Shown here: one piece after another, positions 13,204 through 64,000 of the stretch
Layout of the letters: each line of letters starts with the position of its first letter
How positions within the stretch are numbered: the stretch's first letter is position 1
Source of the DNA: an uncultured Gammaproteobacteria bacterium
Lineage (GTDB): Bacteria; Patescibacteriota; Microgenomatia; UBA8517; JACQJR01
DNA length: 64,000 bases
Direction: 5' to 3'
Assembly: GCA_964442455.1 (NCBI GenBank)
Contig: CAYTZB010000003.1
Span: forward strand, 19,842 to 83,841
Notes under the pieces: generated by a model
The model's input: the letters and a program-made list of their open reading frames with translations, nothing else
What the model was told of the DNA's origin: nothing
Database searches by the model: none
Translations under genes and position numbers: made by a program

Positions 13204-15000
13204 ATGGGCGTGGAAACGTACATGACCTTTCGAGAGCTTTCCAACTATCTAGAAAAGCTTGAAAAAACTACCTCAAGAAATGAGATAACAAGGATTCTTG
13301 CTGAGTTATTCAAAAAGACTCCGGCAACAGAAATAGATAAAGTCTGTTACCTCCTCCTTGGAGAGCTTGTTCCGGCCTATAAGGGGATTGAGTTTAATTT
13401 GGCAGAGCGGATGATGGTGAGGATTCTTGCTCGGGCTTATGGTGTGGAACCAGGAAAAGTGGCAGCGATGTACAAAAAGAGTGGTGATCTGGGAGATGTG
13501 GCTACCGCCTTGGCGGCAAATTCGAAGCACGAAGCACGAAATTCGAAACTATCTGTTCCTGAGGTGTATGACCGACTTATGGAAATTGCAACAGAAGGGG
13601 GAGCAGGGAGTCAGGGGAGGAAAATTACGAAGATGGCAAAGTTACTTTTGGAATTAGATTCCATTTCTGCTAAGTTTGTAGCAAGAATTCCAGTTGGAAG
13701 ACTGCGTCTCGGTTTTTCAGACGTCACCATACTTGATGCGTTGTCGGTGATGGAAAAAGGAGACAAGTCTGCCCGACCACAGATTGAGCAGGCGTACAAT
13801 GTAACAGCCGACATCGGAATGATTGCTCAACACGTTAAGAAGGGAGGAATAGGCTCACTTTCTCGAGTAAAAGCACAGCCAGGTATTCCCATACGGCCCT
13901 CTCTTGCCGAACGACTACCCACGGCAGAAAAGATTATTGAAAAGGTAGGCCCAAAAGTAGGGGTTGAGCCAAAGTTGGATGGATTTCGGACAACCATTCA
14001 TATTTGGTATGAAGGAGGTAAAAAACAAGTGGCAACGTTTTCGCGCAATCTTGAGAATACAACGCACATGTTTCCAGAAATCATAGCGGCGGCACGAAAA
14101 CTTCCTGTCAGAAGCGTTATTTTGGATGGAGAAACAATTGGATACAATCCAAAAACTGGTAAGTTCTTACCGTTTCAAGAAACAGTGCAACGCAAACGGA
14201 AGCATGGTATTGAAGAGGCAGCAAAGAAACTCCCACTTCGTGTTTTTGTATTTGATATTTTATATCTTAATGGTCGTGACCTTCTGTCAGTTCCGTTTAT
14301 TAAACGACGCGAGATCTTAGAGAAGACACTTAAAGTGCATCAAGATGGAGTAAAGTTGGTCGTGCAGAGAATAACCTCTGATGTCGCGGTTGTTAAAGAA
14401 GAATTTAAGAAAAATATTACTGCAGGGCTCGAGGGAATTGTTGCGAAAAAGTTAGATAGTCCTTATCGTGCAGGAAGCAGAGGGTTTGAATGGATAAAAC
14501 TCAAAGGTGGTTCAGGCGCACTTGAGCAACTGCGAGCAGGAGGAAAAGGAGGACTCTTAGACACGGTTGATTGTGTCGTGATGGGTGCATACAGAGGGCG
14601 TGGGAAGCGAGCCTCTTTTGGTGTTGGAGGATTTTTGTTGGGTGTCAGAGAGGGAGACCAATACTTTACGATTTCAAGACTTGGTACTGGGCTTTCTGAT
14701 GAACAGTTCAGGGAGGCCAATAAACGTATAGAAAAATTAAAGGTTAAAGAACAGCCGAAAGAATACGTGGTAGTCAAAGAGGCCACTCCTGATATTTGGG
14801 CAAAACCTTCGCTTGTTGTTGAAATTTTGGCAGATGAGATAACCCTTTCTCCACGCCATACTGCCGGGAATAAAAGTGGACGTGGGTACTCTTTGCGTTT
14901 TCCACGCTTAGTAAGATTTAGAGATGATAAGAATGCGCAAGATGCTACTTCTGTTAAGGAAATTGAATCGATGTATAAAAGCCAAAAAACAAAAGGATAA
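13204..15000 (+). CDS. ATP-dependent DNA ligase (archaeal/eukaryotic-type)
   Basis: Adenylation motif I KLDGFR. EGIVAKK-type motif. Length about 598 aa. The N-terminal DNA-binding domain contains an in-frame repeat-derived segment NSKHEARNSK. Confidence 0.8.
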   Translation: MGVETYMTFRELSNYLEKLEKTTSRNEITRILAELFKKTPATEIDKVCYLLLGELVPAYKGIEFNLAERMMVRILARAYGVEPGKVAAMYKKSGDLGDVATALAANSKHEARNSKLSVPEVYDRLMEIATEGGAGSQGRKITKMAKLLLELDSISAKFVARIPVGRLRLGFSDVTILDALSVMEKGDKSARPQIEQAYNVTADIGMIAQHVKKGGIGSLSRVKAQPGIPIRPSLAERLPTAEKIIEKVGPKVGVEPKLDGFRTTIHIWYEGGKKQVATFSRNLENTTHMFPEIIAAARKLPVRSVILDGETIGYNPKTGKFLPFQETVQRKRKHGIEEAAKKLPLRVFVFDILYLNGRDLLSVPFIKRREILEKTLKVHQDGVKLVVQRITSDVAVVKEEFKKNITAGLEGIVAKKLDSPYRAGSRGFEWIKLKGGSGALEQLRAGGKGGLLDTVDCVVMGAYRGRGKRASFGVGGFLLGVREGDQYFTISRLGTGLSDEQFREANKRIEKLKVKEQPKEYVVVKEATPDIWAKPSLVVEILADEITLSPRHTAGNKSGRGYSLRFPRLVRFRDDKNAQDATSVKEIESMYKSQKTKG

Positions 15001-20383: not shown

Positions 20384-21889
20384 ATGAAGGTAGTTACTGA
20401 CCTTCACTCACATTCTCGCTATGCTCGGGCGGTTTCTCAACAGATGGTGCTTCCGGTAATTTCCGAGTGGGCAGCAAGAAAAGGAATAGATGTAGTTTCG
20501 ACAGGGGATTGGACGCATCCGTTGTGGTTAAGAGAGATTCAAGCACAGCTTGAAGAAGTAGCACCAGGCCTTTATGCAGTAAGGGCGGGTGACACGGGTG
20601 GAAGGGGTCCCGACACGCGCGCAGACTTTAATGTCGAGCACTGGCGGGAGGGAAAACCCGGGGCAGGACCCGCCTTTCCATTGTTCCTTCTTTCCACAGA
20701 AGTTGCAGCAATTTATTCCCAAGGAGGAAAAGGACGTAGAATCCACATGCTTATTTTTGCACCCAGTTTGACGGCGGTTGAAAAGATAAACAAAGAGCTG
20801 ACGCGACGAGGCGCAAACCTTTTTTCTGATGGTAGGCCAATTTTGGGAATGTCGGCGCGTGATGTAACACAGATTGTATTGGAAGCGGACGAGCGGTGTC
20901 TTGTAATACCGGCTCACGCGTGGACCCCTTGGTTTTCTCTTTATGGTTCAATGTCTGGTTTCGACTCAATTGAAGAGTGTTTTGGAGATATGGCGAAATT
21001 TGTTTATGGTATTGAAACGGGATTGTCGTCCGACCCTGCAATGAATTGGAGGGTTGCTGATTTAGACAATCGGGCAATTCTTTCGTTTTCAGATGCACAT
21101 AGCCCGGCAAAGTTGGGGAGAGAGGCGACGGTGTTTGATCTGCCGGAAGTAAGCTACAACAGCATCTACGATGCTATTAGGTTATCGGGTAACTGGGACA
21201 CTGGGACACTGGGTAAAAATAATCCCAGTAACCAAGATACCCAGAAACCTAGTAACCCCAAAATTGCTTATACCATTGAGTTTTATCCTGAGGAAGGAAA
21301 ATATCATTTTACTGGCCATCGTGATTGCAACGTTCGTCAAACTCCCGAGGAGACAAAAGAGTTGGGGACTACTTGCCCTGTATGTAAAAGACTATTAACA
21401 GTTGGGGTTATGCACCGCGTTGAAGAACTTGCGAAGCGACAAAACTCGCGCCGGGCCAGAGGCCCTCAAGGGCCGGAGGCAAAACTAAAAACTAAAAATG
21501 ACGAGCATGGTGTGCGGTGGATACAGCATCAGCAGAATAATCGTCCTTCTTACGTGATGATAGTGCCGTTGCTCGAGATTTTATCGGAAGCAATTGGGTC
21601 ACTAACGACAAGCCAAAGAGTTATTAATGAGTATAAAAAGTTAACTGAATTATTGGGAAGTGAGTTCTTTGTTTTACTACAAACAAAATCCGAAGAAATC
21701 GAAAGAGTATCTGGAGGGAAAATACGAGAAGCACTTGAGAAAGTGAGAAGTGGTAATATTGTCATCGAGCCGGGGTATGATGGAGTTTTTGGAAAAGTAA
21801 AAATATGGCGTGAAGAAACGCAAAGAGCAAAGGGGAAAATGCAAAGCATAGAAGAAGAAAATAAAGAGAGCCAGATGGGACTATTCTAA
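20384..21889 (+). CDS. PHP-domain nuclease, Endonuclease Q-like (TIGR00375-type)
   Basis: N-terminal DLHSHSRYA PHP motif. Internal AHAWTPWFSLYG and SFSDAHSPAKLGRE segments as in EndoQ. C-terminal Cys/His zinc-ribbon-like HRDCN...TCPVCKR. Also carries low-complexity inserts and one copy of a GC-rich palindrome. Confidence 0.55.
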   Translation: MKVVTDLHSHSRYARAVSQQMVLPVISEWAARKGIDVVSTGDWTHPLWLREIQAQLEEVAPGLYAVRAGDTGGRGPDTRADFNVEHWREGKPGAGPAFPLFLLSTEVAAIYSQGGKGRRIHMLIFAPSLTAVEKINKELTRRGANLFSDGRPILGMSARDVTQIVLEADERCLVIPAHAWTPWFSLYGSMSGFDSIEECFGDMAKFVYGIETGLSSDPAMNWRVADLDNRAILSFSDAHSPAKLGREATVFDLPEVSYNSIYDAIRLSGNWDTGTLGKNNPSNQDTQKPSNPKIAYTIEFYPEEGKYHFTGHRDCNVRQTPEETKELGTTCPVCKRLLTVGVMHRVEELAKRQNSRRARGPQGPEAKLKTKNDEHGVRWIQHQQNNRPSYVMIVPLLEILSEAIGSLTTSQRVINEYKKLTELLGSEFFVLLQTKSEEIERVSGGKIREALEKVRSGNIVIEPGYDGVFGKVKIWREETQRAKGKMQSIEEENKESQMGLF

Positions 21890-24071: not shown

Positions 24072-24371
24072 ATGCAGTCTATAAAACAAATACTTGATAA
24101 ATTTGATCCCTTAAAAGATAAATACATTTCTCGGGAGTTTCAGAAGTATGGATATGAGTTAGCCGAGGAGTTGGGGGATTTAGAGCATAAAGGGCTCTAT
24201 ATGAAACTTGCAAAAGAGTTGCCAAGAGCAATATTGGAGCATGCACGGAATTTTGTGAAGGATGCGGGGAGTGTGGATTCAAGGCCGAGATTGTTCATGT
24301 GGAAAGTAACTCAGCTCCGTAAGGAACTGAAAGCACGAAGCACGAAATCCGAAGCACGAAACAATATTTAA
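24072..24371 (+). CDS. hypothetical protein; C-terminal tail encoded by a palindromic repeat
   Basis: 99-aa ORF. Its last roughly 14 codons (KARSTKSEARNNI) come from the CGAAGCACGAA repeat element. Confidence 0.3.
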   Translation: MQSIKQILDKFDPLKDKYISREFQKYGYELAEELGDLEHKGLYMKLAKELPRAILEHARNFVKDAGSVDSRPRLFMWKVTQLRKELKARSTKSEARNNI

Positions 24372-24443
24372 TGTTTTAAACATTTTAAAATTCAAAACGT
24401 TTTGAATTTGTTTCGAATTTCGATATTCGAATTTCGAATTTAT
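24329..24443. repeat. AT-rich palindromic element, CGAAGCACGAA...TTCGAATTTCG family (intergenic copy)
   Basis: GAAGCACGAA units on the left arm and TTCGAATTTCG units on the right arm form an imperfect long hairpin. Same family as the rRNA insertions. Confidence 0.6.
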
Positions 24444-24450
24444 TAAGACT

Positions 24451-35257: not shown

Positions 35258-35392
35258 CAAATCCGAAGCACGAAATCCGAAATCTGAAACAATATTTAAA
35301 TTCAAAATCACAAGTTCAAAACGTTTAGAATTTGAGAAATTAGAATTTTGAATTTGTTTCGAATTTAGAAATTCGAATTTAGAATTTACTTA
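35258..35392. repeat. AT-rich palindromic element, CGAAGCACGAA family (intergenic copy)
   Basis: AATCCGAAGCACGAAATCCGAAATC ... TTTCGAATTTAGAAATTCGAATTT arms. Follows a hairpin right after the trxA stop. Confidence 0.6.
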
Positions 35393-41961: not shown

Positions 41962-42160
41962 TCCTTGTGCTTTGCACAAGGAAATTCGAAGCACGAATTT
42001 TAAAGCACGAAATTCGAATATCGAAGCACGAAACAAATCATAAATTCAAATTTTCAAATGTTTCAAACATTAGAATTTTGAACATTTAGTATTGTTTCGA
42101 ATTTCGTATTTCTGATTTCGAATTTAATTTTCTTTCGGATTTTCTCGCGCAGAGCGCGAG
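41962..42160 (+). repeat. intervening-sequence-like palindromic element inserted in 16S helix 6 (V1)
   Basis: Lies between GCAAGTAGAACGG and GGATAGTTGCAAACGGGTGAGTAACGCG. Bounded by hairpins CCTTGTGC-TTTG-CACAAGG and CTCGCGC-AGAG-CGCGAG. Core is the CGAAGCACGAA...TTCGAATTTCG element. Confidence 0.6.
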
Positions 42161-44282: not shown

Positions 44283-44595
44283 AACAAGGTATCCGTACTG
44301 GAAGGTGCGGATGGATCACCTCCTTTCTAGGAGAAATAGGGTTCACGGCCCTATCCGCCAATTGGCGGAGTGATATTCACCCGAGAGTTTACCTTTACTC
44401 TCGTTTCCTCCCAAAGCCCATTTTGGGCATTGTGGCGGACCAGCCTAAATACTTTTGTTTTTGGCTGGAAACAACAAAAGGATTCTTCCGGTCACTTTCT
44501 GAAGGTCAAGGAAAAAATCCCTAGCAAACGCTGGGGATTTTTTGCCTCCGGCCCTTGAGGGCCTCTGGCCCGGAGGGTATAATTAATGTGCCTTT

Positions 44596-44805
44596 GGGCT
44601 GCTGGTTCAGCGGTAGAACGCTTTCCTGATGACAAACAAAGTTTGACATATCAAATTTTGATACATAACATGGGTGCGTGGCTCAGTGGTAGAGCGTCGT
44701 CCTGATAAGACGAAGGTCCTTGGTTCGATCCCAAGCGCACCCACACAGCAAAGTACAAAATTTGTTATAAGAAAGAGGTGCTAGGTTCGACTCCTAGGCA
44801 GCCCA
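44596..44805 (+). tRNA. split tRNA with GAU anticodon (tRNA-Ile-like) carrying a 136-nt insertion in the anticodon loop
   Basis: The 5' half 44596-44632 and 3' half 44770-44805 pair perfectly: acceptor GGGCTGC/GCAGCCC, D-stem GTTC/GAAC, anticodon stem CTTTC/GAAAG, T-arm CTAGG-TTCGACT-CCTAG. The anticodon loop CTGATGA is interrupted at the canonical 37/38 site. Confidence 0.6.
44672..44743 (+). tRNA. tRNA-Ile(GAT), nested inside the insertion of the outer tRNA
   Basis: Manual cloverleaf. Acceptor GGGTGCG/CGCACCC. Anticodon stem TCGTC/GACGA. Loop CTGATAA. T-loop TTCGATC. Confidence 0.85.
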
Positions 44806-45277
44806 CTACCAAAATCAAAATTTCAAGTCCGTTATCCCTCCCTCACCCACACAATTCACAGTTGACCCATTCGGCTTAGCTCAGGTCTTCGACTCTGAGG
44901 TTGAGCACCTCAGTGCTCAGACTCGAAGAGGTCAATCCTGAATATAATTGAAGGGTTGACAAGCTTCTTTTAATTCCTCTATAATGTAACGTACTGGGTT
45001 AGCCAGTTTTCCTGAATGAGAAGAATCTTACAATCCTTAAAAGCGATTTCGCGGAAATTTTGGCGTGGCAAAGAATAGATAGCTAAGGAAATTCTTCTTG
45101 AGTTTGAAACTGGCGAACCCGCCAGTTTTTTTTGTGTACCTTTAGAATTATAAAAACAAGCTTTGCTTGTTTTTCGCTTTGCTCAAAATAGTACACAACC
45201 CTACCAAAATCGCAGCACGAAGCGTATACGAATAGTATTGAAAAGCTGAGTGCTAAGATTGGGAGGGTATTACATAC

Positions 45278-45350: not shown

Positions 45351-45909
45351 CAATCCGCCAGCTGGCGGAGGTTCTTTGACAACCAAGAGAAAATTGTGCA
45401 AGATTTAAACTATTTGCCTTTTGATAACACGAGGCAAGATAGTGGAGTAGAGCCGTGTCAACAGAACGCGCACAGTGGATGCCTTGGCACACGCTACCGA
45501 AGAAGGACGCAGTTGGCCGCGATACTCGTCGGATAGGTGCCAACAACCGATAATCCGGCGATTTCCGAATGGGGAAACCCCTCCGATGGTAACATCGGAG
45601 AGCCCCCGATTTAATCGGGGGTGGGGAACTCGGGGAACTGAAACATCTAAGTACCCGGAGGAAGAGAAATCTAAGAGATTCCGTCAGTAGCGGTGAGCGA
45701 AAGCGGAAGAGCCTAAACCCCCTCGTGGGGTGTTGTGGGACTAACATACGGGATGGAGGAGGATAGCAGAAGAGTCTGGAATGGCTCACCAAAGAAGGTG
45801 AAAGTCCGGTACGCGAAATCCAAATCCACCTAGTTTTGCTCCCAAGTACCATGGAGCAGATACTCTGTGGGAATCTGGGGGGACCACCCTCCAAGGCTAA
45901 ATATAGTGT

Positions 45910-45952
<43 letters not shown>

Positions 45953-46009
45953 TGGGCGGGACGCCCAGTGAAATAGAACCTGAAACTGTGTGCGAACAAG
46001 CCGGTAGAG

Positions 46010-46203
46010 CTTGTGCATGGCACAAGAAATTCGAAGCACGAATTTTAAAGCACGAAATTCGAATATCGAAGCACGAAACAAATCATAAATTCAAATTTTC
46101 AAATGTTTCAAACATTAGAATTTTGAACATTTAGTATTGTTTCGAATTTCGTATTTCTGATTTCGAATTTAATTTTCTTTCGAGTTTCTCGCGCTGTGCG
46201 CGA
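46010..46203 (+). repeat. intervening-sequence-like palindromic element in 23S helix 25 region (E. coli ~540)
   Basis: Lies between ...GAACAAGCCGGTAGAG and TGATACCGTGCCTATTGAAGAATGAGCCGGCGAGT. Hairpins CTTGTGC-ATGG-CACAAG and CTCGCGC-TGTG-CGCGAG. The core is nearly identical to the 16S copy. Confidence 0.6.
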
Positions 46204-46716
46204 GTGATACCGTGCCTATTGAAGAATGAGCCGGCGAGTCCTCATCGTTTCTGTGTCTAAGTCATTAACTGACGCAGGCATAGAGAAATCGAGTGTGAAT
46301 AGCGCGTTTCTGGTCTATACCAGATTAGAAACGGTGGGGGACCCGAAACCGGGCGATCTATCCATGGGCAGGGTGAACCCCGCAGAAATGCGGGGGAAGG
46401 CCCGAACCCGTCTAGGGGACAATCTGGTGGGATGACCTGTGGATAGCGGTAAAATGCCAATCGAGCCCGGAGATAGCTGGTTCTCCCCGAAAGGTCTATG
46501 GGGACCGCGGAAGTAAAAAGCGTGTCAGGGGTAGAGCACTGAATGGGTGGAGGAGGGTAACCGACTTCACTCAATCAAACTCCGAATACTGGCGCGTATA
46601 AATCCAGACAGACTCACGGGGCTAAGCTCGTGAGTCGAGAGGGAAACAGCCCAGATTCTCGTCTAAGGTCTCGAAGTCTTGGCTCAGTTGGAAAGGATGT
46701 CATATTCCCAAGACAC

Positions 46717-46747
<31 letters not shown>

Positions 46748-46845
46748 TAAAGAAAGCGTAACAGCTCACTGGAAGAGGCCCGCATGGGCTGGGAGTATGG
46801 CGCCGAAAATGATCGAGGATTAAGCCAAGCACCGAAGACAGAGGG

Positions 46846-47013
46846 CCTTGTCATTTGGACAGGGAAATTCGAAGCACGAATATCGAAGCTCGAAACAATA
46901 TCAAAATTCAAAAATTTAAATTTCAAAATTATTTTGAATTTAGTATTTTAAGAATTGTAATTTGTTTCGGATTTCGGATTTAGAATTTCGGATTTTCTCG
47001 CCCAGAGGGCGAG
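46846..47013 (+). repeat. intervening-sequence-like palindromic element in 23S helix 45 region (E. coli ~1170)
   Basis: Lies just before the conserved TTGGTAGGGGAGCGTTCCGTA. Hairpins CCTTGTC-ATTTG-GACAGG and CTCGCCC-AGAG-GGCGAG flank a GAAATTCGAAGCACGAA ... TTTCGGATTTCGGATTT core. Confidence 0.6.
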
Positions 47014-48369
47014 GTTGGTAGGGGAGCGTTCCGTATGCGGTGAAGTTTCACCGTAAGGTGAGGTGGAGCGTACGGAAGTGAGAATGCCGGCATGAGTAGC
47101 GTACGAGTCCGGTGAGAATCCGGACCGCCGAATACCCAAGGTTTCCGTCGCAACGTTCGTCGACGACGGGTTAGTCGGTCCTAAGGAGAGCCCGCCAACT
47201 GGCGGGGTATCTGATGGGAAAGCCGTTAATAATCGGCTACTCGTTTTGTATCGTTATTTAGCCAGGGGTTGACGAGTGTGGAGGTGTTGGGCCCTATACA
47301 GATTGGGGTGTAAGCTGCAAGGCAGTTCCGGCAGGGAAATCCGCCGAAGCGTTTTAACCGAGCAGCAATGCAGACCCCCGTAAGGGGGAATTCAACTACC
47401 TTTAGACTCCGAGAAAAGACTCGTGGTGAGATACAGAACGGACCGTACCGCAAACCGACACTGGTGGGTTGGCAGAGTATGCTAAGGCGAGTGGGAGAAA
47501 GAGGCTCAAGGAACTCGGCAAACAAGCTGGACGTAAGTTCGCAAGATGTCCTCCCCACCCTTTCTGGGTATCAGTATTCCGATATGGGTATTGGTATTTA
47601 GAAAGGGTGGGGTGCAACAAATGACTGTCTCTCGACTGTTTAGCAAAAACACAGGTCCCTGCAAACCCGAAAGGGAAGGTATAGGGGCTGACGCCTGCCC
47701 AGTGCCGGTAAGTCAAGGGGAGGTGTCCGTTGTCCGCCTTTGGCGGACTATGGAGCACTGAACTGAAGCTCCGGTAAACGGCAGCAGTAACTATAACTGT
47801 TCTACGGTAGCGAAGTTCCTTGTCGTGTAAGTTACGACCCGCACGAAAGGCGTCACGAGGAGACAACTGTCTTGAGCCTTTACCCAGCGAAATTGCGATG
47901 GCTGTGAAGACGCGGCCTACTTGCACCAGGACAAATAGACCCCGTGGAGCTTTACTGCAACCTGGCATTGCTACCATTTGTTTTGATTGTTGAGCGTAGG
48001 AGGGAGTCCTTTCCGCAAGGTCAGGACGTCAATGAAACACCTCTCTTCAAAATACGTGGGGCTTATCTGAGTCCGCTGGAAACGCGGATAGAAACAGTGC
48101 TTGGTGGGCAGTTTTACTGGGGCGGTATCCTGCTAAAGTGTAACGCAGGAGTGCAAAGGTCGGCTTAGCACGGATGGAAATCGTGCTGGACGGGTAAGAC
48201 CTTAAGCCGGCTTGACTGCAAGGTCGACGGACCGAGCAGGTACGAAAGTAGGTTCTAGTGATCCTCGCGTTCGTCGTGGGACGGCGCGGGCTTAACGGAT
48301 AAAAGCTACCCCGGGGATAACAGAGTAGTCGGTCCCGAGAGTCCATATCGACGGGCCGGTTCGCTACCT

Positions 48370-48720
48370 CAACAATGACATCGGGGTCCTTCGATGGTAA
48401 CATCGGAGTGCTGTTAGTCAAACTCTACCAGTAGTTTGGCAAAATATCGACTCATAACGGTGAATCCTGTATATTGACATTCGTGTATCTTTCGGGATAA
48501 CGTTAGTTAATAATGGTAACACCGTGGGAAGTTTATCGGATGTTCAACAACAATTAATTTTAGGTTGTGTCTTGGCGGTATAAAATTCCGATATAACCCC
48601 GTATCGACTTTTTCTTTTTAAGAAAAGATGGAGAGTTTTCTCCATAATACGTCGACGCCCATTTTGTTGTGATGGGTGAAGGTATAGTCAGGCTACCACG
48701 AAAGTGGATAGGTTTATTTG
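48370..48720 (+). mobile_element. ORF-less intron-like insertion in 23S rRNA at E. coli ~2499/2500 (candidate group I intron)
   Basis: Removing 48370-48720 restores GCTACCT|CGATGTCGGCTC (E. coli GGCACCTCGATGTCGGCTC). The exon ends in U and the insertion ends in G. GAAGGTATAGTCAGG resembles the group I S element AAGATATAGTCC. Confidence 0.45.
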
Positions 48721-49157
48721 CGATGTCGGCTCAGCGTATCCTGGGGGTGAAGAAGCTCCCAAGGGTTGGTCTGTTCGCCCATTAAAACGCTACGCGAGCT
48801 GGGTTCAGAACGATGTGAATCAGTTCGGACTCTATCCGGTGCAAGCGTGAGAGTCTTGAGGGGATCTGGCCTCAGTACGAGAGGACCAGGCTGGAGGAAT
48901 CCCTAGTGTGCCGGTTGTCCCATCCGGGGCAACGCCGGGTAGCTACATTCCTACGGGATAACTGTTGAAAGCATCAAATCAGGAAACCCACCCCAAGATG
49001 AGGACTCCTTATCAAGACCCCTGGAAGATTACCAGGTTGATAGGTAGGAGGTGGAAGGAGAGCAATCTCTTAAGCCTACCTATACTAATTGGTCAACACA
49101 CGGCTTACTCCACACATTTTGTTTCGTGTTATTAGAAGGCAATTTTCTCATGAGTTG

Positions 49158-49309: not shown

Positions 49310-50407
49310 GTGACTGTAAAAAACTCCTTAAAAACTAACAAGACTCTATCTACGGGAATGGCTGCACTCCTTGCTAAAGAGGAGTATCGACCACGAGTAC
49401 TCCGCAGAGGCGAGACACTCCAAGGAAGCGTACGAGAGGTAACTGCTGGTCGTGTCTTCATTGATATAGGTGCCAAATCAGAAGGAGTAGTAAGTGGAGA
49501 GGAGTATGATGCCGTACGCGAATTTGCGAAGACGTTGCAAGTAGGTGCCTACGTTCCGGTGACAGTCATTACTCCTGAGACCCCGGAAGGTACAGCTCTT
49601 GTATCGTTAAGAGGGGCGGCACGTACCTTTGCTTGGGAGAAAGCAGCTGCCGCGGCGGCGAGTCAGGAACCCCTTCAGGCACGGGTGATACATGTTGCGA
49701 GGGGAGGAATAACAGTAGAACTCTTTGGCATCTCCTGTTTTATCCCGACTGTGGAGCTTGGCAAATATGTGCGCGAAGCAAGTTTTGCCCTTGATGGGAA
49801 AAGCATTGCGGTCCGAGTAATTGAAGTTGATAGAGAGAAAGAACGCATTATACTGTCTGAACGAGCAGTATCGGAAAAAGAGGAAATTTTACGCGTGCAA
49901 GAATTGGTGAAGCGTATACCTGCGGGAGAGCGTCTTGTGGGTGAAGTTACCAAAATTGCTCCTTTTGGCGCCTTTATAGAGATTGTGAAAGACAATGTAC
50001 GTATTGAAGGGCTTGTGCATATCTCTGAGCTTTCTTGGGAGAAAATAGATGACCCGAGTTCGGTCGTTTCAATGGGGGATAAGGTAGAGGTAGTAGTCCT
50101 GGGTGAGCGGGAAGGACGCCTCGCTTTATCACGCAAACGTGCAGGGCGAGATCCTTGGCAGGGAACAGCGCAGCGTTTTCCCTCCGATACTCCTGTGTCT
50201 GGGACGGTAACAAAAATCACGGACAGAAATATCGTCGTTGAAGTTGAGGGAGGATTGGAGGCTATTATTCAAAAACGCACCCTTCCTCCTGGTGCGCAGC
50301 CAAAAGTTGGCGAGCGCATAGAATGTTTTGTAGAGAGGGTTGAAGAAGATAAACGGAGGATGATGCTGTCGGTTCGGCTTACTGCAAAGCCGGTGGGATA
50401 TAAATAA
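49310..50407 (+). CDS. S1 RNA-binding domain protein (short ribosomal protein S1-like, 4 S1 repeats)
   Basis: GTG start. Repeated S1-fold segments (G.V..V...G.FI..G...G..H.SE). 365 aa. Confidence 0.7.
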   Translation: MTVKNSLKTNKTLSTGMAALLAKEEYRPRVLRRGETLQGSVREVTAGRVFIDIGAKSEGVVSGEEYDAVREFAKTLQVGAYVPVTVITPETPEGTALVSLRGAARTFAWEKAAAAAASQEPLQARVIHVARGGITVELFGISCFIPTVELGKYVREASFALDGKSIAVRVIEVDREKERIILSERAVSEKEEILRVQELVKRIPAGERLVGEVTKIAPFGAFIEIVKDNVRIEGLVHISELSWEKIDDPSSVVSMGDKVEVVVLGEREGRLALSRKRAGRDPWQGTAQRFPSDTPVSGTVTKITDRNIVVEVEGGLEAIIQKRTLPPGAQPKVGERIECFVERVEEDKRRMMLSVRLTAKPVGYK

Positions 50408-50500
50408 AAAATTTTCCATTTTCCAATTTCCATTTGCCAATGATTTTCAATTTATAATTTGAAAATTGACAAATCAATAAATAAATGGACAATGGTAGAT
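50402..50500. repeat. AT-rich TTCCAATTT/GGACAATGG repeat element overlapping the radA 5' end
   Basis: TTTTCCATTTTCCAATTTCCATTTGCCAATG ... ATGGACAATGGTAGATGGACAATGGCAAAT. The annotated radA N-terminus MDNGRWTMAN is encoded by this repeat. Confidence 0.5.
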
Positions 50501-51867
50501 GGACAATGGCAAATCGTACTTCCAACTTTGTTTGTCAGCAATGTGGTTATAGTCAGGTAGGGTGGGCTGGCCGTTGTCCGAACTGCGGCTCATGGGGAAG
50601 TTTGGTTGAAACAATTGAGGCAATCAATAAACGAAAAGTTAAAAGCGAAAAACATAAAGAATTAGAAGTTATCGAGCTTACTAAAGTTAAAGGAGAAGGG
50701 TTAAGGAGAATTTCTTCAGGAATTCACGAAGTTGATAGAGTATTGGGTGGTGGTATTGTCCCTGGGCAAGTAGTTCTTCTCGCGGGTGAGCCAGGAATTG
50801 GGAAGTCAACGCTTCTTTCCCAGATTGCAGAAAAAATATACTCACCGAGCCAGAGGCTCTCTAGAGCCGGAGGCGCGAATTCAAAGAAAAAGAATATTCT
50901 TTACGTTTCTGGAGAAGAGTCAGCAAGCCAAATAAAACTTCGGATAGAGAGACTTGGACTTTCCGGCAAAGATGTATTTGTTATCGGAGAGACAGATGTA
51001 GACGAAATACTAGAAGTGATTAGTAATCAGTTGTTAGTGACTAGTGCCCTAGTAATTGTTGATTCCATCCAAACTCTTTCAACTACTGATCTTTCGGGTA
51101 TGGCAGGGAGTGTCGGTCAGGTAAGAGAATGTGCCGCTCGGCTCATTGCGATGGGTAAACAAAACTCAGTGCCTGTATTTCTTGTGGGCCATGTTACCAA
51201 AGAGGGGACTATTGCTGGCCCGCGAGTACTTGAGCATATGGTTGATACGGTGCTGTGGTTTGAGGGAGACCGCGCTCATGTATTACGGTTGCTGCGGGCA
51301 GTCAAAAATCGTTTTGGTCCAACAGACGAGGTGGGTATTTTTACTATGGAGGAACGGGGACTCCATCCTGTTGAAAATCCTTCCTCTCTCTTTATCTCTG
51401 GACTCACAAATGTTCCCGGACAGGTTTCTACCGTTATTGTTGAAGGGACAAGGCCCCTTATCGTTGAGATACAAGCACTCGTGGTACCCACAAAGATGCC
51501 CTTTCCCCGTCGAACCGTGCAAGGGTTGGATGCTCGACGTGTGGAGTTTCTTTTAGCTGTTGCCACTCGACGGGCGGGGATACAGTTTGATAGTTTTGAC
51601 GTGTTTGTGAATGTTCCTGGTGGGATATCTATTCGAGAGCCGGCGGCAGATTTGGCTATACTTCTTGCATTGACCAGCGCCGCCCTTAATAAACCACTTC
51701 CTCCTCATGCCGCGATATTCGGAGAAGTGGGACTGCTGGGAGAAGTAAGACCCGTATCGCAGGAAAGACGACGCATCAAGGAGGCAAGACGACTTGGGTT
51801 TAAAACTCTTGTGACGAGTAGCGTTGTCCGCACGGTTGGAGAGGCGATAAAGAGGTTTGTAAAATAG
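50485..51867 (+). CDS. radA: DNA repair protein RadA/Sms
   Basis: Zinc finger CQQCGY...CPNCGSWGS. Walker A GEPGIGKST. KNRFG motif. C-terminal Lon-like domain. The true start may be the internal ATG at 50506 (MANRTSNFVC...). Confidence 0.85.
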   Translation: MDNGRWTMANRTSNFVCQQCGYSQVGWAGRCPNCGSWGSLVETIEAINKRKVKSEKHKELEVIELTKVKGEGLRRISSGIHEVDRVLGGGIVPGQVVLLAGEPGIGKSTLLSQIAEKIYSPSQRLSRAGGANSKKKNILYVSGEESASQIKLRIERLGLSGKDVFVIGETDVDEILEVISNQLLVTSALVIVDSIQTLSTTDLSGMAGSVGQVRECAARLIAMGKQNSVPVFLVGHVTKEGTIAGPRVLEHMVDTVLWFEGDRAHVLRLLRAVKNRFGPTDEVGIFTMEERGLHPVENPSSLFISGLTNVPGQVSTVIVEGTRPLIVEIQALVVPTKMPFPRRTVQGLDARRVEFLLAVATRRAGIQFDSFDVFVNVPGGISIREPAADLAILLALTSAALNKPLPPHAAIFGEVGLLGEVRPVSQERRRIKEARRLGFKTLVTSSVVRTVGEAIKRFVK

Positions 51868-52609
51868 CTAAATGGTTGATTGTTAATTGTTAACTAAACT
51901 ATGTAGCCATTTAACCATTTGACTATTTCTTTCCCCACAACTTATCCACATTCTCTTAATTATCCAAACTTATTACGAAAAACAAGCTTAAATTTCAACC
52001 CTAAATTATTATAAGATATTACGTTTTCGGTCTGTGAATTATTATAGGCCTTGACAAGATAGAATATAGGTGTTACTGTAGCAAAGGAATGCGAAAAGTA
52101 ATAAAGAAATTCTTGCACACAATAAGAACCTGCTTCACAGAACCTTGGCCTTTCAGGCTAAGAATACGTAAAACTCGTATTAATCAAGGAGCGAAAGAAT
52201 GGCGTGAGCTTGCACGGTTAGGACAGAATTTAATTGTGATGCAGATGGGGAGATGAACGAATTTGCACTTTAAAAAAAGAGCATTGCTGTCGCTGGGTCA
52301 CTCCAAGTACCATACGATACCTGGTGACTTCTCCACGGGCAGTAATGCTCTTTGTGAATGGTTGCTGCTCATGAGACACAACGGTTTAGGCAGACAACCG
52401 ATTTCAGCGTAAGACTTAAAAATAATTTTGTCAAGTCCTTAATCGCTTTTCTTGGGCGGGAGTGTATGTAGGGCAGGCGTACACTCTCGCACAGGGGAAG
52501 CGATTTTTTTGCCTCCGGGCCCTTGAGGGCCTCTGGTCCGGAGGGCCTTCACAGGTCTTCATAGTTTAAAACTTGACAACACAGCTTATAGTTTGTTATA
52601 GTCTGGGCA

Positions 52610-56045: not shown

Positions 56046-56165
56046 AAGCTCCTAAAATTTCTAATTTCTAATTATTCTAATTGACCTAAAGAATTTTCAA
56101 GCACCAATTAGACATTTTATCATTGGGATTTTATTAGAAATTAGTAATTAGGTTAATTAGGTGAA
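56046..56165. repeat. AT-rich CTAATTGACC/ATTAGTAATTAG-type repeat element
   Basis: TTTCTAATTTCTAATTATTCTAATTGACCTAA ... AAATTAGTAATTAGGTTAATTAGG. Related copies lie in-frame inside the giant surface-protein gene at about 62215-62300. Confidence 0.5.
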
Positions 56166-56213
56166 TTTGGATGTTTGACTTCTTTCTAATATTTTGCTAC
56201 AACAATAACTAAC

Positions 56214-57584: not shown

Positions 57585-57680
57585 TTAAAATTTTCAATTT
57601 CTAATTTACAATTTGCAATGAATTTTTAATGAAACATTGAGATATTAATTAATTGAATGAAAATTGAAAATTAAAAATTA
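57585..57680. repeat. AT-rich AATTTTCAATTT-type repeat element upstream of the membrane/TPR gene
   Basis: AATTAAAATTTTCAATTTCTAATTTACAATTTGCAATGAATTTTTAATG ... AATGAAAATTGAAAATTAAAAATT. Confidence 0.45.
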
Positions 57681-59697: not shown

Positions 59698-60132
59698 GTG
59701 AAGAAAACTTCTGAGGAAATTGGACGAGAACTAGCGGAGAAAACGTTTAGAGAACTGGGAATTTACGGGAACAGAGGGGAATCTAAGGGAAAATCTCCCG
59801 CCCGCCTTGCCGCGAGGCAGGTAAATTCCCCCAAACTCCCGTTTCAAATTCCAGCTATAGAAAAAACTATGAGGCAAGCGCAAAGCACCCAGGGTTACAA
59901 GGCTTCTGCGGCCTGGCAAGCGGCATCTTTATTAAGAGATTTAGTCGAGCTTTATCTTGAAATTATTCCGGCGCGGCAATTTAGAAGAAAGACCCAGCTG
60001 GAGGACGCGGCCAGAAGTCCAGAAGTATGGTTTCGACTATCGAGGAAGGTTGGGCAAGACCGACAACAAGAGAATATCTTGATTATCTTGGCTTTTCTCA
60101 AGCGAGCCTTACAGAGGTTCGTGGAGATGTAG
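59698..60132 (+). CDS. hypothetical; possible N-terminal part of a disrupted four-helix-bundle-like gene
   Basis: Overlaps the next ORF in another frame. Flanked by TTCCCGTAATT-type repeats. Confidence 0.2.
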   Translation: MKKTSEEIGRELAEKTFRELGIYGNRGESKGKSPARLAARQVNSPKLPFQIPAIEKTMRQAQSTQGYKASAAWQAASLLRDLVELYLEIIPARQFRRKTQLEDAARSPEVWFRLSRKVGQDRQQENILIILAFLKRALQRFVEM

Positions 60133-60446
60133 AGAGATTGTACACGGATGGCTACTTGAAATCGGGAAAGTTTGAAATTCCTACTCCTTCCCGTAATTCC
60201 CCCTATCCTTCCGTAAATTCCCGGAAATATCCGACAGAATATGGGAAACTACGGGAGAGACTACGGGAGTTTACGGGAAGGGATATAAAAGCTTCAGACC
60301 TTAATTACGAAATTTTTACCGAGCTTGTAAATAAAACTGATTTTCTACTAAAAAGGACTGTAGGGGGTTTACAAAGTAGAATTATAAAAGAAGAAAAGCG
60401 CAAACTTACCCAAGATTTGGAAGCAATATACAGAAAGCATTGGTAG
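60027..60446 (+). CDS. four-helix-bundle-like protein (C-terminal part)
   Basis: YLDYLGFSQASLTEVRGDVERLYTDGYL resembles the conserved FLYIALGSLSELETQL...GYI block of TIGR02436 proteins. Contains a repeat-derived segment SRNSPYPSVNSRKYP. Confidence 0.3.
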   Translation: MVSTIEEGWARPTTREYLDYLGFSQASLTEVRGDVERLYTDGYLKSGKFEIPTPSRNSPYPSVNSRKYPTEYGKLRERLREFTGRDIKASDLNYEIFTELVNKTDFLLKRTVGGLQSRIIKEEKRKLTQDLEAIYRKHW

Positions 60447-60498: not shown

Positions 60499-63400
60499 TT
60501 AATTTCCCGTATTCTGTAGCTCAATTACCCACCAATTAAACTTCACATCAACCGCTACGGGATTGTCGAAGCCGACGGTGAACTCGCCAGCCTGTTTACT
60601 CTTAACGTACAGCACATTATTTAGAGTAGATGAGAGTGGTGTCACATAGACAAGGGTATTATCTGTTACAAAAGGTGATTTAATAGTAATTTGTGAGACA
60701 TTTGCGGGCAATACCGCCTGTCCGGCAGTCGCATTCGTTTGAATTTCGCCTGGTGCAAGGGTTCCTGAATTAGTAGCAGTATTATCAGTAGCAATTACAA
60801 GTTTCTCAGTCTCCACCTGGGCAAATTGTGCTCGCCTCGATTCGACATCGGCGAAGCGGGCGGAACCCGAGGCATTAATTGAAGCAACAGTTGCGCCTCC
60901 CGCGCCTTTTATGAGTAAGTTCCCAAAACCTGACTGGTTAGCTGATTCACTAGTTAGCTGGTTATCTAGGTCTATAACTAGATTTTGGTTGGGGAGTGGG
61001 GTAATGGTGTTTATCGCCAGTTTCCCCTCAACAGTTAGGTTGCCTTTAATAACCACGTCTCCATTTGTGGCAATTTGCACTCTGTCGCCCATGATGTAAA
61101 GGGGTTGGGCGGCAAGAGACTGAATAGACAATGGTGCGGACAACGTATTTATTGCAGTAACCATTTGACCATTTGGCCATACAGCCATGTCAGGATTGTT
61201 AGATGGTTGAATGGTTGATTGTTGAATTATTAAATCACTTCCTACATATACCGAGCCGACAGTCGCCAGATTACCTAGAATATTGGTAGTAGGTAAGCTG
61301 CCGTAGTCTGTAGTCTGTAGTCCGTTAGCTAGACTTGCAGAATCGGTGGCAACATTAGTGCTCCAGTCGTTTGCTTGGCTCATCAGCTTTTGGTCAACCT
61401 CGACTTGTGAGAGGAGATCCTCAATTTCAGCGAGAGTCAGTTTTTCAGGAGTCGGTTGTTGGTTTTCGGTCTGTCGGTTGTCGGTTGAAACCGATACCTG
61501 ACTACCTGATAACTGAGAGCTGATACCTGATAAACTGGATTGTAATTCATTCATCTTATTATTAACTTCATCCAAATCCGCCCGTGTCAAAGTATCTGCC
61601 GATATGTTTTGAGCCAACAAGTCCCCAAATGTCCCTCGGCGGGCGATTATCTCATCAGCGTATATGGTTCCTGCCACGTTAGCATCTTTACTAACCTCTA
61701 AGCTCTCTGCTCTAAGCTCTCCGCTAATTGTGGCATTACCTTGAATTTCTACATCCCCCTGGACAATTAGTTTGCCAAAACCGCTTTCAGCTATTTGACC
61801 ATCTGGCCATGTAGCCATGTCAGGATTGTTAGATGGTTGAATGGTTGCATGGTTACTCAGATCTATGACTAGATCTTCTCCTCCTGTTCTAATCTCACTT
61901 GTTTCAACAACCGGCGAGATTATTTTCTTTTCAGCAACTAGTTCTTGGGTTTGGACAACTCCTGCTTTTAAGCTAGCGACGATTAATTCCCCGAAGGCAC
62001 CCACACGATCGATAACTTCGTCTCCAATTTTTAATTTCCAATTTTTAATTTCCAATGAATTTTCATTGGTCATTGAATCATTAGAAATTGATTGTAAATT
62101 GTTACTTGAAAATTGATCATTACTGACAAGGCGTAAATCGCCGCTGTCAGTGAGATATACATCCGGATCATACCAGCCAACGTTGACGAAAGTAAGGATT
62201 CGGCCACAGGCCGTAGAATTTCTAATTGACCTAATTTCTAATTGACCTAATTGGTCATTGGTGCTTGGTACTTGATTAGAGCAATTAGTAATTAGTAATT
62301 CGTCATTTGAGCCGTCAAACGGCTCAAATGCTTTTCCAATAATAGGTCCTGCCCTCGTTGCTTTCATCGCAATCCCTGGAGTAGAGGAAGAAGTTAAGAA
62401 GTCTCCCGCCTCAATTGGCCCATTTTCGGTTGAGACCCTAGTTTGTACCTGCCCTACAATTCCTACTAATGCAGTCAGATGAGGATTCTTCTGGTCATAA
62501 ATATCATTGCCGACAAATCCAGGGTTGCTAGATACAACCCCTACCATTGATTTTCCATTTACACATTTTTCTGCCTTTCCCTCTAATGAAAGGCATACCA
62601 AATCTCCTGTTTCCAAATCTCCAGGTATTTGCTGATAGAAATACTCAGCATAGTCAGCACCATTGATATTTACAGTACCCGCAGCATTGATTGAGCGACC
62701 GGAGGTTGCGTCTCTCCATATATGCATAACTGTGTCCGTCCCAGTGTTTGGCCCAGTAGGGCTTAGACCGTTAGCGGGATAGTAAACATCCATCACAGTT
62801 CCACCAGCGCTTACAAAGTCAATAAATTTAGTTCCCCCAGTGTTACTATTTGTTACTGTCAGCTTTCCTGTGCTCGTGAGCTGCATTAGGTTACTTTCTG
62901 TGGAACCGCCGGATGCTTCCCAAAACCAAGCAAACTGCTTTGAGGATGATCGTGTATCTATCCTAAACCATGCGGCATCTGGATTTGTTGCCCCTGATTT
63001 GAGCGGTATACCTCTTTCAGTCATTACTCCAAGGTTTAAGATTGCTTCATCTGCAACCGTGGCGGTTTGAGTTTCAAGTTCCAGGCCTGCTACAACATCG
63101 GCATTTTCTAAAATAAGTGCGGTATGGGTACCTGTGAAAGAGGTATAAAAAGCAGAGGAGTTACCAAAGTTTGGATTTCCAGAAGAAGAGAAATCGTTAA
63201 AGTCGGCCGCTGCAGCAGAAACAACTTGGAAAGGTCCGCCGGCGACAGTTATTGAGTTTTTAATAAGGTTTGGTGAGGCGAGTTTGAGCACCGAGTTAAG
63301 GCTGAAATCAAAACTTTGCATCCAAATTTTATTTGGAGCACAGGTTGTAACACAATCTACCTCTCCGCCAATTGCTAGAATGGCTTTGTTGTCTGCGATG

Positions 63401-64000
63401 TTTGTTCCGGAGTTATAAGGATGGACAGGCGAGCCGGTGACCGAAACAGCAGCAATATCCGCAGGCCCGCCGGTTGAGTAAGCAGTTCCCGAGTCATCAG
63501 ATTTTCCGGTTGAGGCATTAGAATAACCATCAACTAAAGTGTCAGAATCCGTACCAACAACAGATAGGGCACCATAGGCAGAGGTAGTGGTGTTTCGTGT
63601 TCCAACATAAATGTAGCGATTATAGTCATCAACAGCGACCGCCTTTGTTACATTGGTTGAACCTAAGAGTTGCTGATAATTATCCGCTGTCGCCTGTTCT
63701 GTAATCCGGCTTGCTGTGTGGTTCTGTAGTGCCCGTCTGCCAACCTCATACATATGTTTAATTTGACCAGCGGTTAGAGTTTCGGCAGTAACGAATGGCT
63801 CGTCAAGGGAACCTTGGAAGTAGCTACCGTCATCATTTCTGCCTAAGGAGAAGGAGGCTGTTTTGTCGGTGAGTGTGGTAGAGGCGGAGGCGGAGTTGTC
63901 CAGTACGCCGTTTACATAGATTTTAAGTGTTGTCCCGTCATAGGTGCCCACAACATAATACCAACTAGTTGTTGATGTTAACGCAGTATTGCTTATTACT
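60499..64000 (-). CDS. giant cell-surface protein (partial; N-terminus beyond window) with LamG/concanavalin-A-like lectin domain and internal repeats
   Basis: Frame stays open to the window edge: upstream codons read ...AVISNTALTSTTSWYYV. The M at 63951 is an internal GTG. LamG-like motif LKIYVNGVLDN...GSLDEPFV. Duplicated module IQPSNNPDMA(T/V)WP(D/N)GQ. More than 1,165 aa within the window. Confidence 0.55.
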   Translation of the reverse strand, partial: VISNTALTSTTSWYYVVGTYDGTTLKIYVNGVLDNSASASTTLTDKTASFSLGRNDDGSYFQGSLDEPFVTAETLTAGQIKHMYEVGRRALQNHTASRITEQATADNYQQLLGSTNVTKAVAVDDYNRYIYVGTRNTTTSAYGALSVVGTDSDTLVDGYSNASTGKSDDSGTAYSTGGPADIAAVSVTGSPVHPYNSGTNIADNKAILAIGGEVDCVTTCAPNKIWMQSFDFSLNSVLKLASPNLIKNSITVAGGPFQVVSAAAADFNDFSSSGNPNFGNSSAFYTSFTGTHTALILENADVVAGLELETQTATVADEAILNLGVMTERGIPLKSGATNPDAAWFRIDTRSSSKQFAWFWEASGGSTESNLMQLTSTGKLTVTNSNTGGTKFIDFVSAGGTVMDVYYPANGLSPTGPNTGTDTVMHIWRDATSGRSINAAGTVNINGADYAEYFYQQIPGDLETGDLVCLSLEGKAEKCVNGKSMVGVVSSNPGFVGNDIYDQKNPHLTALVGIVGQVQTRVSTENGPIEAGDFLTSSSTPGIAMKATRAGPIIGKAFEPFDGSNDELLITNCSNQVPSTNDQLGQLEIRSIRNSTACGRILTFVNVGWYDPDVYLTDSGDLRLVSNDQFSSNNLQSISNDSMTNENSLEIKNWKLKIGDEVIDRVGAFGELIVASLKAGVVQTQELVAEKKIISPVVETSEIRTGGEDLVIDLSNHATIQPSNNPDMATWPDGQIAESGFGKLIVQGDVEIQGNATISGELRAESLEVSKDANVAGTIYADEIIARRGTFGDLLAQNISADTLTRADLDEVNNKMNELQSSLSGISSQLSGSQVSVSTDNRQTENQQPTPEKLTLAEIEDLLSQVEVDQKLMSQANDWSTNVATDSASLANGLQTTDYGSLPTTNILGNLATVGSVYVGSDLIIQQSTIQPSNNPDMAVWPNGQMVTAINTLSAPLSIQSLAAQPLYIMGDRVQIATNGDVVIKGNLTVEGKLAINTITPLPNQNLVIDLDNQLTSESANQSGFGNLLIKGAGGATVASINASGSARFADVESRRAQFAQVETEKLVIATDNTATNSGTLAPGEIQTNATAGQAVLPANVSQITIKSPFVTDNTLVYVTPLSSTLNNVLYVKSKQAGEFTVGFDNPVAVDVKFNWWVIELQNTGN

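Follow-up and report, generated by a model that had tools for sequence, protein, structure and literature searches.

Hairpin repeats read in frame within protein genes of a candidate phyla radiation genome: an apparent broader counterpart of the Rickettsia palindromic elements

Genomic context and repeat anatomy

The 64-kb stretch of contig CAYTZB010000003.1 analysed here (in its entirety referred to as the window) stems from an uncultured bacterium of the candidate phyla radiation (CPR) and ends within the gene of a giant LamG/Peptidase_G2 surface protein, whose AT-rich, hairpin-forming repeat segments are the subject of this study; several of them have relatives in the spacers of the same window (coordinates are compiled in Table 1). 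The part of the giant gene inside the window encodes the C-terminal 1166 residues of the protein, with Laminin_G_3 and Peptidase_G2/IMC domains. Nearly all window genes are located on the + strand. The ribosomal RNA (rRNA) genes form one operon with CPR-typical insertions (16S, 41893 to ~44330; 23S, 45451-49107; 5S) and with tRNA-Ile and tRNA-Ala in the 16S-23S spacer, and at 13204-15000 an ATP-dependent DNA ligase is encoded that matches an NCBI protein of 'Candidatus Microgenomates bacterium' with 100% identity. The ligase match and the rRNA features assign the window to Microgenomates; a cyanobacterial or Beggiatoa origin, which the heptamers had suggested, was rejected.

Each repeat forms an imperfect hairpin, one arm being composed of tandem 7-nt (sometimes 8-nt) units and the other of their complement; the repeats were sorted into the families A, B, C, F and G and into GC-rich palindromes. 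The fold of each DNA element was evaluated against 200 shuffles, and the blast similarity of intragenic to intergenic copies against 40 shuffles. Tandem Repeats Finder detected 72 non-overlapping tandem arrays in the window, 27 of which have a period of 7, versus 9.75 arrays in total and 1.15 with period 7 in dinucleotide shuffles of the window. The excess of these arrays and of the family motifs (see below) rules out chance.

In-frame insertions in the giant surface-protein gene

Element C consists of two perfect 16-mers AATTTCTAATTGACCT (62217-62252) that are followed by the complementary arm ATTAGAGCAATTAGTAATTAGTAATT, and it is translated in the open frame as NCSNQVPSTNDQLGQLEIRSIRNS; its DNA hairpin has a fold z-score of -3.97, with 1 of 200 shuffles folding equally well. 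The giant protein was aligned with P0121-P0126, which are its sole homologues among 5.8 billion proteins, as well as with nine loci from metagenomes; its IMC domain shows 41-58% identity to them. The motif 'GKA.E.f.G-(5-8 residues)-G.I.vFvn.gyy' is broken in the window protein by exactly 32 additional residues, NDELLITNCSNQVPSTNDQLGQLEIRSIRNST, and these correspond to nt 62215-62310, i.e. to hairpin C itself. A 32-residue gap is present at this site in L128, L135 and P0123-P0126, and the linker is also short in L133 and L134; the loop is variable at this position, since the linker of L129 is intermediate in length (13 residues longer). In the AlphaFold (AF2) model of residues 400-700, the beta-domain reaches predicted local distance difference test (pLDDT) values of 64-86 and the inserted stretch 161-198, situated between strands 152-159 and 199-212, stays below 40 (the model is weak overall, with a mean pLDDT of 48); the element C peptide is accordingly disordered in the model, as a loop that connects two beta-strands.

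The initial annotation had related a segment at ~62215-62300 to an intergenic element at 56046-56165, and this relationship was recovered: the motif AATTTCTAATTGACCTAA (at most 3 mismatches) matches five times, with 0.15 matches expected; the matches lie within the giant gene and on each of the two arms of the 56046-56167 hairpin, and the best blast score between the two elements was reached by 0 of 40 shuffles. A further segment described there (~62030-62110) corresponds to element B, whose in-frame translation could be retained (NENSLEIKNWKLKIG, from the perfect 14-mer array of 2.4 copies at 62023-62056) and whose palindromic character turned out to be weak (z = -1.6; 20 of 200 shuffles equally good). 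With intergenic 57589-57626, the element B array shares 87% identity over 38 nt, a match equalled in 1 of 40 shuffles, and the element as a whole results in a net gain of ~12-15 residues relative to P0126. In elements C and B alike, only one of the six frames is open, and it is the frame in use.

The two copies of element F are 95% identical over 55 nt (copy 2 compared with 61163-61217). At the position of copy 1, which has a related intergenic copy at 51868-51930, a gap is found in all three homologues aligned there; copy 2 is a weak palindrome, as is element B. Element G folds into a hairpin not equalled by any of 200 shuffles (z = -4.33) and lies within an insertion of ~45 residues relative to the homologues. 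The homologue gaps thus coincide with hairpin G, with copy 1 of element F and with part of element B. Because conservation with P0121 and P0122 extends over its last ~80 residues, the giant gene is intact and not a pseudogene, its frame having been kept through at least four insertions.

Table 1. Coordinates and properties of repeat families, repeat elements and the giant gene in the window
Feature	Position	Strand	Description
Giant LamG / Peptidase_G2 (IMC) surface-protein gene, 3' 3.5 kb	60499..64000	-	ORF open to window edge; insertion host
Element C	62215..62310	-	96 nt = 32 codons, in-frame hairpin inside IMC domain; 2 x AATTTCTAATTGACCT + complementary arm
Element B	62023..62125	-	14-mer x2.4 (TCCAATTTTTAATT), 7+7 perfect hairpin CCAATGA/TCATTGG, degenerate right arm
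Element F, copy 1	61155..61227	-	translated TIQPSNNPDMAVWPNGQ; fold z = -2.55
Element F, copy 2	61785..61857	-	octamer-phased repeat ACCATYTG...ATGGTTGA, translated TIQPSNNPDMATWPDGQ
Element G	61440..61545	-	hairpin (GTCGGTT)n opposite (GATACCT/ACCTGAT)n; in frame
Intergenic family-C hairpin	56046..56167	+	downstream of rho
Intergenic family-B repeat	57586..57679	+	heptamers AATTTTC/AATTTAC ... CAATGA
Intergenic family-B-like hairpin, rpsA-radA	50407..50515	+	fold z = -2.83; right arm overlaps radA start 50506
Ligase insert	13518..13552	+	solo family-A left arm AAATTCG AAGCACG AAGCACG AAATTCG AAAC; encodes NSKHEARNSK
Complete family-A hairpin	24331..24444	+	left arm gives last ~13 codons + stop of ORF 24072-24371
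Complete intergenic family-A hairpin	35259..35390	+	after thioredoxin gene
Family-A hairpin in 16S, helix 6 apex	41981..42142	+	181-nt insert in Rfam alignment; RNA fold z = -8.4
Family-A hairpin in 23S helix 25 (H25)	46026..46187	+	after E. coli position 543; fold z = -10.2
Family-A hairpin in 23S helix 45 (H45)	46843..47019	+	E. coli positions 1159-1181
GC-rich palindromes, e.g. TCCGCCAGCTGGCGGA	11365, 32085, 41750, 44354, 45354; 21451-21484, 44538-44577, 52506-52545
Repeat family A			unit CGAAGCA/CGAAATY opposite RATTTCG
Repeat family B			AATTTNC ... CAATGA
Repeat family C			AATTTCT/AATTGAC
Repeat family F			ACCATTTG opposite ATGGTTGA
Repeat family G			GTCGGTT opposite ACCTGAT

Repeats in other protein genes of the window

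Six family-A copies are present in the window, and the motif CGAAGCACGAAAT (of the CGAAGCACGAA type; at most 1 mismatch) matches eight times, always on the + strand, with 0.08 matches expected. Of the repeat families that had been proposed to be common to spacers and genes, B and C are loose, with a similarity that extends over 15-38 nt. The C-terminus of ORF 24072-24371 is indeed repeat-encoded, the CGAAGCACGAA motif covering its last ~13 residues. This ORF belongs to a real family (301 matches) in which conservation stops at RLFMWK..L.K; in the window copy, the complete family-A hairpin furnishes the variable tail together with the stop codon. For the DNA ligase, an insert NSKHEARNSK had been attributed to the same repeat; it is CGAAGCACGAA-encoded, but by a single arm in a hypervariable hotspot and not by a palindromic element. 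According to the AF2 model, the peptide forms a coil (107-116) between the ligase helices 96-106 and 118-129. The site is the most indel-rich position of the ligase family, a hotspot common to relatives: in the syntenic relative L001 (83% identity) a GC-rich hairpin is nested in frame within the family-A arm, and in L002 a different compound palindrome is positioned at the same codon; at a second ligase site of L001, TCCGCCAGCTGGCGGA is inserted in frame.

The assignment that failed was that of the RadA N-terminus MDNGRWTMAN, which is a start-codon artefact: on the long ORF, the TIGR00416 profile does not begin before residue 8, and the true start is most likely the ATG at 50506 (MANRTS...). 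The N-terminal 'MDNGRWT' appeared because the longest ORF was chosen, and the rpsA-radA element merely overlaps the start codon. Apart from this case, the general expectation of the initial annotation that palindromes are tolerated in frame in the manner of the Rickettsia palindromic elements (RPEs) was borne out in its core by the checks it had proposed: the repeat-encoded peptides are absent from aligned homologues (with the 32-residue gap at element C and the intermediate linker of L129), the insertions lie in loops of the AF2 models (the ligase coil and the low-pLDDT loop of element C), and reading frames are preserved without signs of a pseudogene, the C-terminus of the giant protein being conserved.

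Two further genes contain repeats of other types. In the coding sequence (CDS) 20384-21889, the GC-rich palindrome at 21451..21484 (+) repeats the rRNA-spacer element 44540-44573 in inverted orientation with 100% identity, and the Pth gene contains a heptamer array (23094-23123; ACTGACT/ACCGACT) at the same codons as L001 8801-8831. The synteny between L001 and the window is broken only by two extra window genes, which encode a P-type Ca-ATPase (16898-19375) and a four-helix-bundle protein (22534-22914).

Family-A hairpins in the rRNA genes

The three rRNA copies of family A (fold z-scores of -4.8 to -10.2) are, by sequence alignment, placed in the classical intervening-sequence (IVS) sites h6, H25 and H45, as additional hairpins that are absent from E. 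coli rRNA. Over 162 nt, the copy in 16S and that in H25 share 99% identity. Many short non-intron insertions have been described for both 23S sites in CPR, with RNase III processing presumed, in a 2024 survey (PMC11270868). The site and the extended-hairpin form are thus those of known rRNA IVS; the IVS of the window differ in that they belong to a dispersed repeat which also occurs in spacers and ORFs, a link that the same survey does not appear to draw.

Several other features were observed in the operon and elsewhere in the window. An insertion at 43596-44270 near the 16S 3' end contains an ORF (43738-44250) for a single-domain LAGLIDADG protein, the conserved 16S end GGATCACCTCCTTTCT following at ~44313, and a 351-nt 23S insert without ORF (48370-48720, after E. 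coli position 2500) gave a sub-threshold match to group I introns (RF00028, 32 bits, E = 1.4e-6). In the 16S-23S spacer, an outer tRNA-like gene (44596-44814) exhibits the acceptor GGGCTGC/GCAGCCC, the anticodon stem CTTTC/GAAAG with the loop CTGATGA (GAU, Ile) and the T arm CTAGG-TTCGACT-CCTAG; behind the anticodon loop, this gene is interrupted by ~142 nt that contain the complete tRNA-Ile(GAU) 44672-44744, i.e. one tRNA is nested in another. Two genes for four-helix-bundle '23S rRNA intervening-sequence protein'/Avd-like proteins (TIGR02436, PF05635) are also present: the one at 22534-22914 is wedged between genes that overlap each other in L001, and the one at 59698-60446 is split between two overlapping ORFs and rich in GGGAATTTACGGGAA-type repeats. 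Two families of GC-rich palindromes, TCCGCCAGCTGGCGGA and the T-run-preceded CCGGGCCAGAGGCCCTCAAGGGCCGGAGG, are found in spacers, in rRNA flanks and inside CDSs.

Distribution of family A across genomes

The family-A consensus reads AAATYCG-AAGCACG-AAATCCG-AAAC ... GTTTCGG-ATTTCGA-TATTCGA-ATTTCGG. A scan of species-representative genomes (596 Gb) with the 16-mer AAATTCGAAGCACGAA yielded at least 119 loci, a number to be read against the few hundred matches expected by chance for any 16-mer in 596 Gb; the full hairpin, with the cognate right arm TTGTTTCGGATTTCGATATTCG within 260 nt, was present in 77 of the 127 matches listed. The elements of other genomes (~150 nt) can be aligned with the window copies over their whole length; their ends of ~35 nt are conserved, as is an asymmetric internal loop with GCA facing ATA, and the AT-rich tip varies. 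Among the matches listed, the host labels comprise Desulfobacterota, Planctomycetota, Verrucomicrobiota, Kiritimatiellia, Lentisphaerae, Omnitrophota, Aminicenantes, Binatia and Gammaproteobacteria, several CPR classes, a metagenome-assembled genome (MAG) of Nanoarchaeia (DPANN) and a cultured Wenzhouxiangella; the MAG labels span ~15 or more phylum-level taxa, and the flanks are often GC-rich. Closed chromosomes carry family A as well.

The types of insertion site recur outside the window. A Saccharibacteria contig carries the element in 23S H25, and Transketolase_N of a gammaproteobacterial MAG and TsaD of another MAG are split by it in frame, both with the peptide NSKHEARNSK of the window ligase. 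In family A, stop codons are half as frequent as in shuffled controls, and its arms are open in nearly all six frames. GC-rich hairpins are nested in the AT-rich arms of the family-A elements L006, L034 and L024 (Saccharibacteria and Thermodesulfobacteriota MAGs), as in the L001 ligase, so that the insertion of repeats into repeats looks recurrent. Five matches were obtained in IMG/VR (two full and two partial elements among them), which suggests that carriage of family A by phages is possible but rare; blastn with the full element gave no match among PLSDB plasmids and INPHARED phages, a result to which the low-complexity filter may contribute. No Rfam family matches the elements, and a protein-database search with the translated element returned one weak, uninformative match. 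RNAalifold predicted 6 pairs only for the MAFFT alignment of 39 family-A elements, because slips of the heptamer register spoil the alignment.

Origin of the intragenic copies

We consider it probable that the giant gene acquired its AT-rich segments through the in-frame insertion of short hairpin repeats, that is, of selfish, non-autonomous palindromic elements similar to RPEs or to MITEs (miniature transposable elements with inverted repeats). The intragenic repeats would likewise, in our judgement, be members of a loose superfamily that is scattered over spacers, rRNA IVS sites and variable loops of proteins. Mobility of the elements, as we infer it, would involve copy-and-paste formation of new copies, the arms of which would then grow and decay by slippage. 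Within genes, copies would survive only if their length is a multiple of three, if the used frame is free of stops and if the position is a surface loop or linker, and they would then be translated as low-complexity peptides; rRNA copies would extend helix tips and would probably be removed by RNase III or tolerated. A copy-and-paste signature is seen in the 162 nt that are 99% identical in 16S and 23S, the 55 nt that occur with 95% identity twice in the giant gene and the 34 nt that a CDS and a spacer have in common with 100% identity.

Several results weigh against this interpretation. No target-site duplications were detected in the 10-nt flanks of 73 family-A elements, where the sharing of k-mers was no higher than in permuted pairs and abutting repeats of at least 3 nt were present in 2.7% versus 2.4%. 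Outside rRNA there was no significant preference for pre-existing host hairpins (flank complementarity of 5.29 versus 5.12 +/- 0.11), no transposase or REP-associated tyrosine transposase (RAYT) gene was present among the scanned ORFs, which are all but ~20 of those in the window, and no pair of empty and filled sites between close strains was obtained. Furthermore, families B, C and F match their intergenic relatives over 15-38 nt only and not as near-identical copies, element G has no relative elsewhere in the window (blast versus shuffles), elements B, C, F and G show no depletion of stop codons, and the Pth array replaces a native segment without any change of length compared with other Pth proteins.

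These points lend some weight to an origin in situ, by which slippage of replication and switching of templates, acting locally on a genome prone to heptamers, would have generated the repeats without transposition, the 'families' being a mutational vocabulary (AATTTNN, CGAAATN). The Pth array, which keeps the native length and is orthologous in L001, therefore points to array formation in place and not to insertion, and the final unit of element B (WKLKIGDEVID) aligns with the native YQVKDSSGNVID of a homologue; for B, C, F and G, an old insertion is inseparable from local generation because of the weak (G: absent) intergenic similarity, and the lack of target-site duplications fits as well. 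However, local slippage cannot yield the ~35-nt ends and GCA/ATA loop of family A across phyla inside GC-rich flanks, nor does it agree with a 162-nt copy in two rRNA genes, a 34-nt copy in a CDS and a spacer, or the clean 96-nt addition represented by element C; as a general explanation it is thus rated unlikely. That the sequences are functional RNA structures, selected as RNase III or other processing sites, terminators or mRNA stabilisers with the intragenic copies as by-products or regulators, appears improbable to us: all eight family-A cores of the window are in sense orientation, the rRNA copies are located where other bacteria process intervening sequences, and in 56 of 77 elements the fold of the CGAAGCA-first strand is slightly the better one (p = 4e-5), but across phyla the orientation of family A to flanking genes is unbiased (20 same-sense, 17 antisense) and therefore counts against a strand-specific RNA role, Rfam contains no matching family, and a processing site within an ORF would cut the mRNA.

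Still harder to sustain, and very improbable in our view, is the function of the arrays as a contingency locus in which gain or loss of a 7-, 14- or 16-nt unit would shift the frame and switch the C-terminal part of the protein on or off. A giant surface protein would be a suitable host, the unit lengths are not multiples of three, and several arrays are perfect (62023-62056, 62217-62252, 61303-61322); yet copy numbers are low (2-5.6 units) and most arrays imperfect, the same arrays are seen in rRNA, in spacers and in genes of housekeeping function, and they pair as hairpins. A look-up for a second contig of the strain that might differ in repeat number gave no record. Barely credible is the assumption of no insertion at all, with AT-rich codon bias in low-complexity linkers, pseudogenes or assembly artefacts feigning the repeats. 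In its favour, all homologues vary in the ligase loop and in the tail of ORF 24072, both of them rich in K, N and S, but the motifs exceed every shuffle, homologues lack the peptides, the ORFs are intact with all their domains, and the same element is present in a cultured isolate and in closed chromosomes; this explanation is largely refuted already.

With insertion of hairpin repeats as the preferred explanation, a more far-reaching proposal may be put forward tentatively, possible rather than probable as we see it: family A may be an undescribed, horizontally spreading hairpin element with heptamer-phased ends of ~35 nt, common to CPR, DPANN and distant phyla, that colonises spacers, makes rRNA IVS and inserts in frame into enzymes, and hence a pan-prokaryotic RPE counterpart moved by a widely available mechanism.

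Comparison with known repeat systems

Mobile hairpins of organelles are represented by the double-hairpin elements of Allomyces mitochondrial DNA and the palindromic repeats of Volvox. Like the repeats of the window, these hairpins and the palindromes of M. jannaschii colonise spacers, variable regions of rRNA and, in frame, protein genes; they differ in hosts and sequences and are devoid of heptamer phasing. The coding palindromes of M. jannaschii were reportedly described by Suyama et al. in 2005.

With the heptanucleotide systems, i.e. the short tandemly repeated repetitive (STRR) sequences of cyanobacteria, the TAACTGA repeats of Beggiatoaceae (PMC4679880) and the multicopy elements of Geobacter metallireducens, which are located between and within genes (PMC2700814), the window repeats have in common the excess of period-7 direct repeats (within the window 27 versus 1.15), some two-strand loop arrangements and the intergenic as well as intragenic occurrence. 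The NNNCTGA unit of these systems is also found in the window (61493-61532 and the Pth array), as are TTGGTCA-like units. The heptanucleotide systems differ in their other unit sequences; they are described as lineage-specific and mainly direct repeats, with no rRNA copies or in-frame domain insertions documented.

As small, non-coding, multicopy and hairpin-forming sequences, the elements also resemble MITEs and the repetitive extragenic palindromes (REP) with their bacterial interspersed mosaic elements (BIME). In contrast to these, the ends are heptamer arrays and not simple terminal inverted repeats, and neither the target-site duplications of MITEs nor, among the window ORFs scanned, a parent insertion sequence or RAYT was found. 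The elements measure 90-180 nt with heptamer-array arms, as opposed to the 20-40-nt palindromes with tetranucleotide head that accompany a RAYT, and no Y1-transposase domain was found among the scanned ORFs of the 64-kb window. Among established MITE and REP families, none is known to extend across many phyla as a single sequence family. Some MITEs do make in-frame fusions (PMC10969869).

In the open-access literature, nothing was found on such elements in CPR, on a repeat family common to spacers, rRNA IVS and ORFs, or on the family-A sequence, although a prior description is possible; a 2024 review calls a similar mechanism in other prokaryotes merely 'conceivable' (PMC10969869). In-frame 'selfish' palindromes have so far been treated as a near-unique oddity of Rickettsia, and a CPR genome now shows the same behaviour, while one repeat family joins three phenomena that are usually handled separately, namely intergenic repeats, rRNA intervening sequences and protein insertions. 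The preservation of the family-A sequence across very distant phyla raises the testable question of how a small element moves or is maintained. For the annotation of MAGs, the repeats entail inflated ORFs, false N- and C-termini, spurious small 'proteins' and length heterogeneity of 16S and 23S.

The closest parallel in behaviour is provided by the RPEs (Ogata et al. 2000/2002, summarised in PMC10969869), which are dispersed palindromes of ~100-150 nt, many of them in frame in unrelated intact genes and translated at fold-compatible positions. The same combination is observed here: multicopy hairpin repeats (by the folds of A, C and G, those of B and of copy 2 of F being weak) that are in frame, absent from orthologues and situated in loops. 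The likeness is behavioural, and no membership in the sequence families RPE-1 to RPE-10 is claimed. Differences concern the phased 7-8-nt units of the arms, the occupation of rRNA helix tips, the occurrence of family A in many phyla versus one genus, and the CPR host. The suggestion of the initial annotation that a comparable system exists in this lineage holds for the behaviour in a CPR genome but not for its restriction to the lineage, family A being found in many phyla and in rRNA. The feature is real, and on the present analysis it seems to parallel the Rickettsia palindromic elements on a broader scale.

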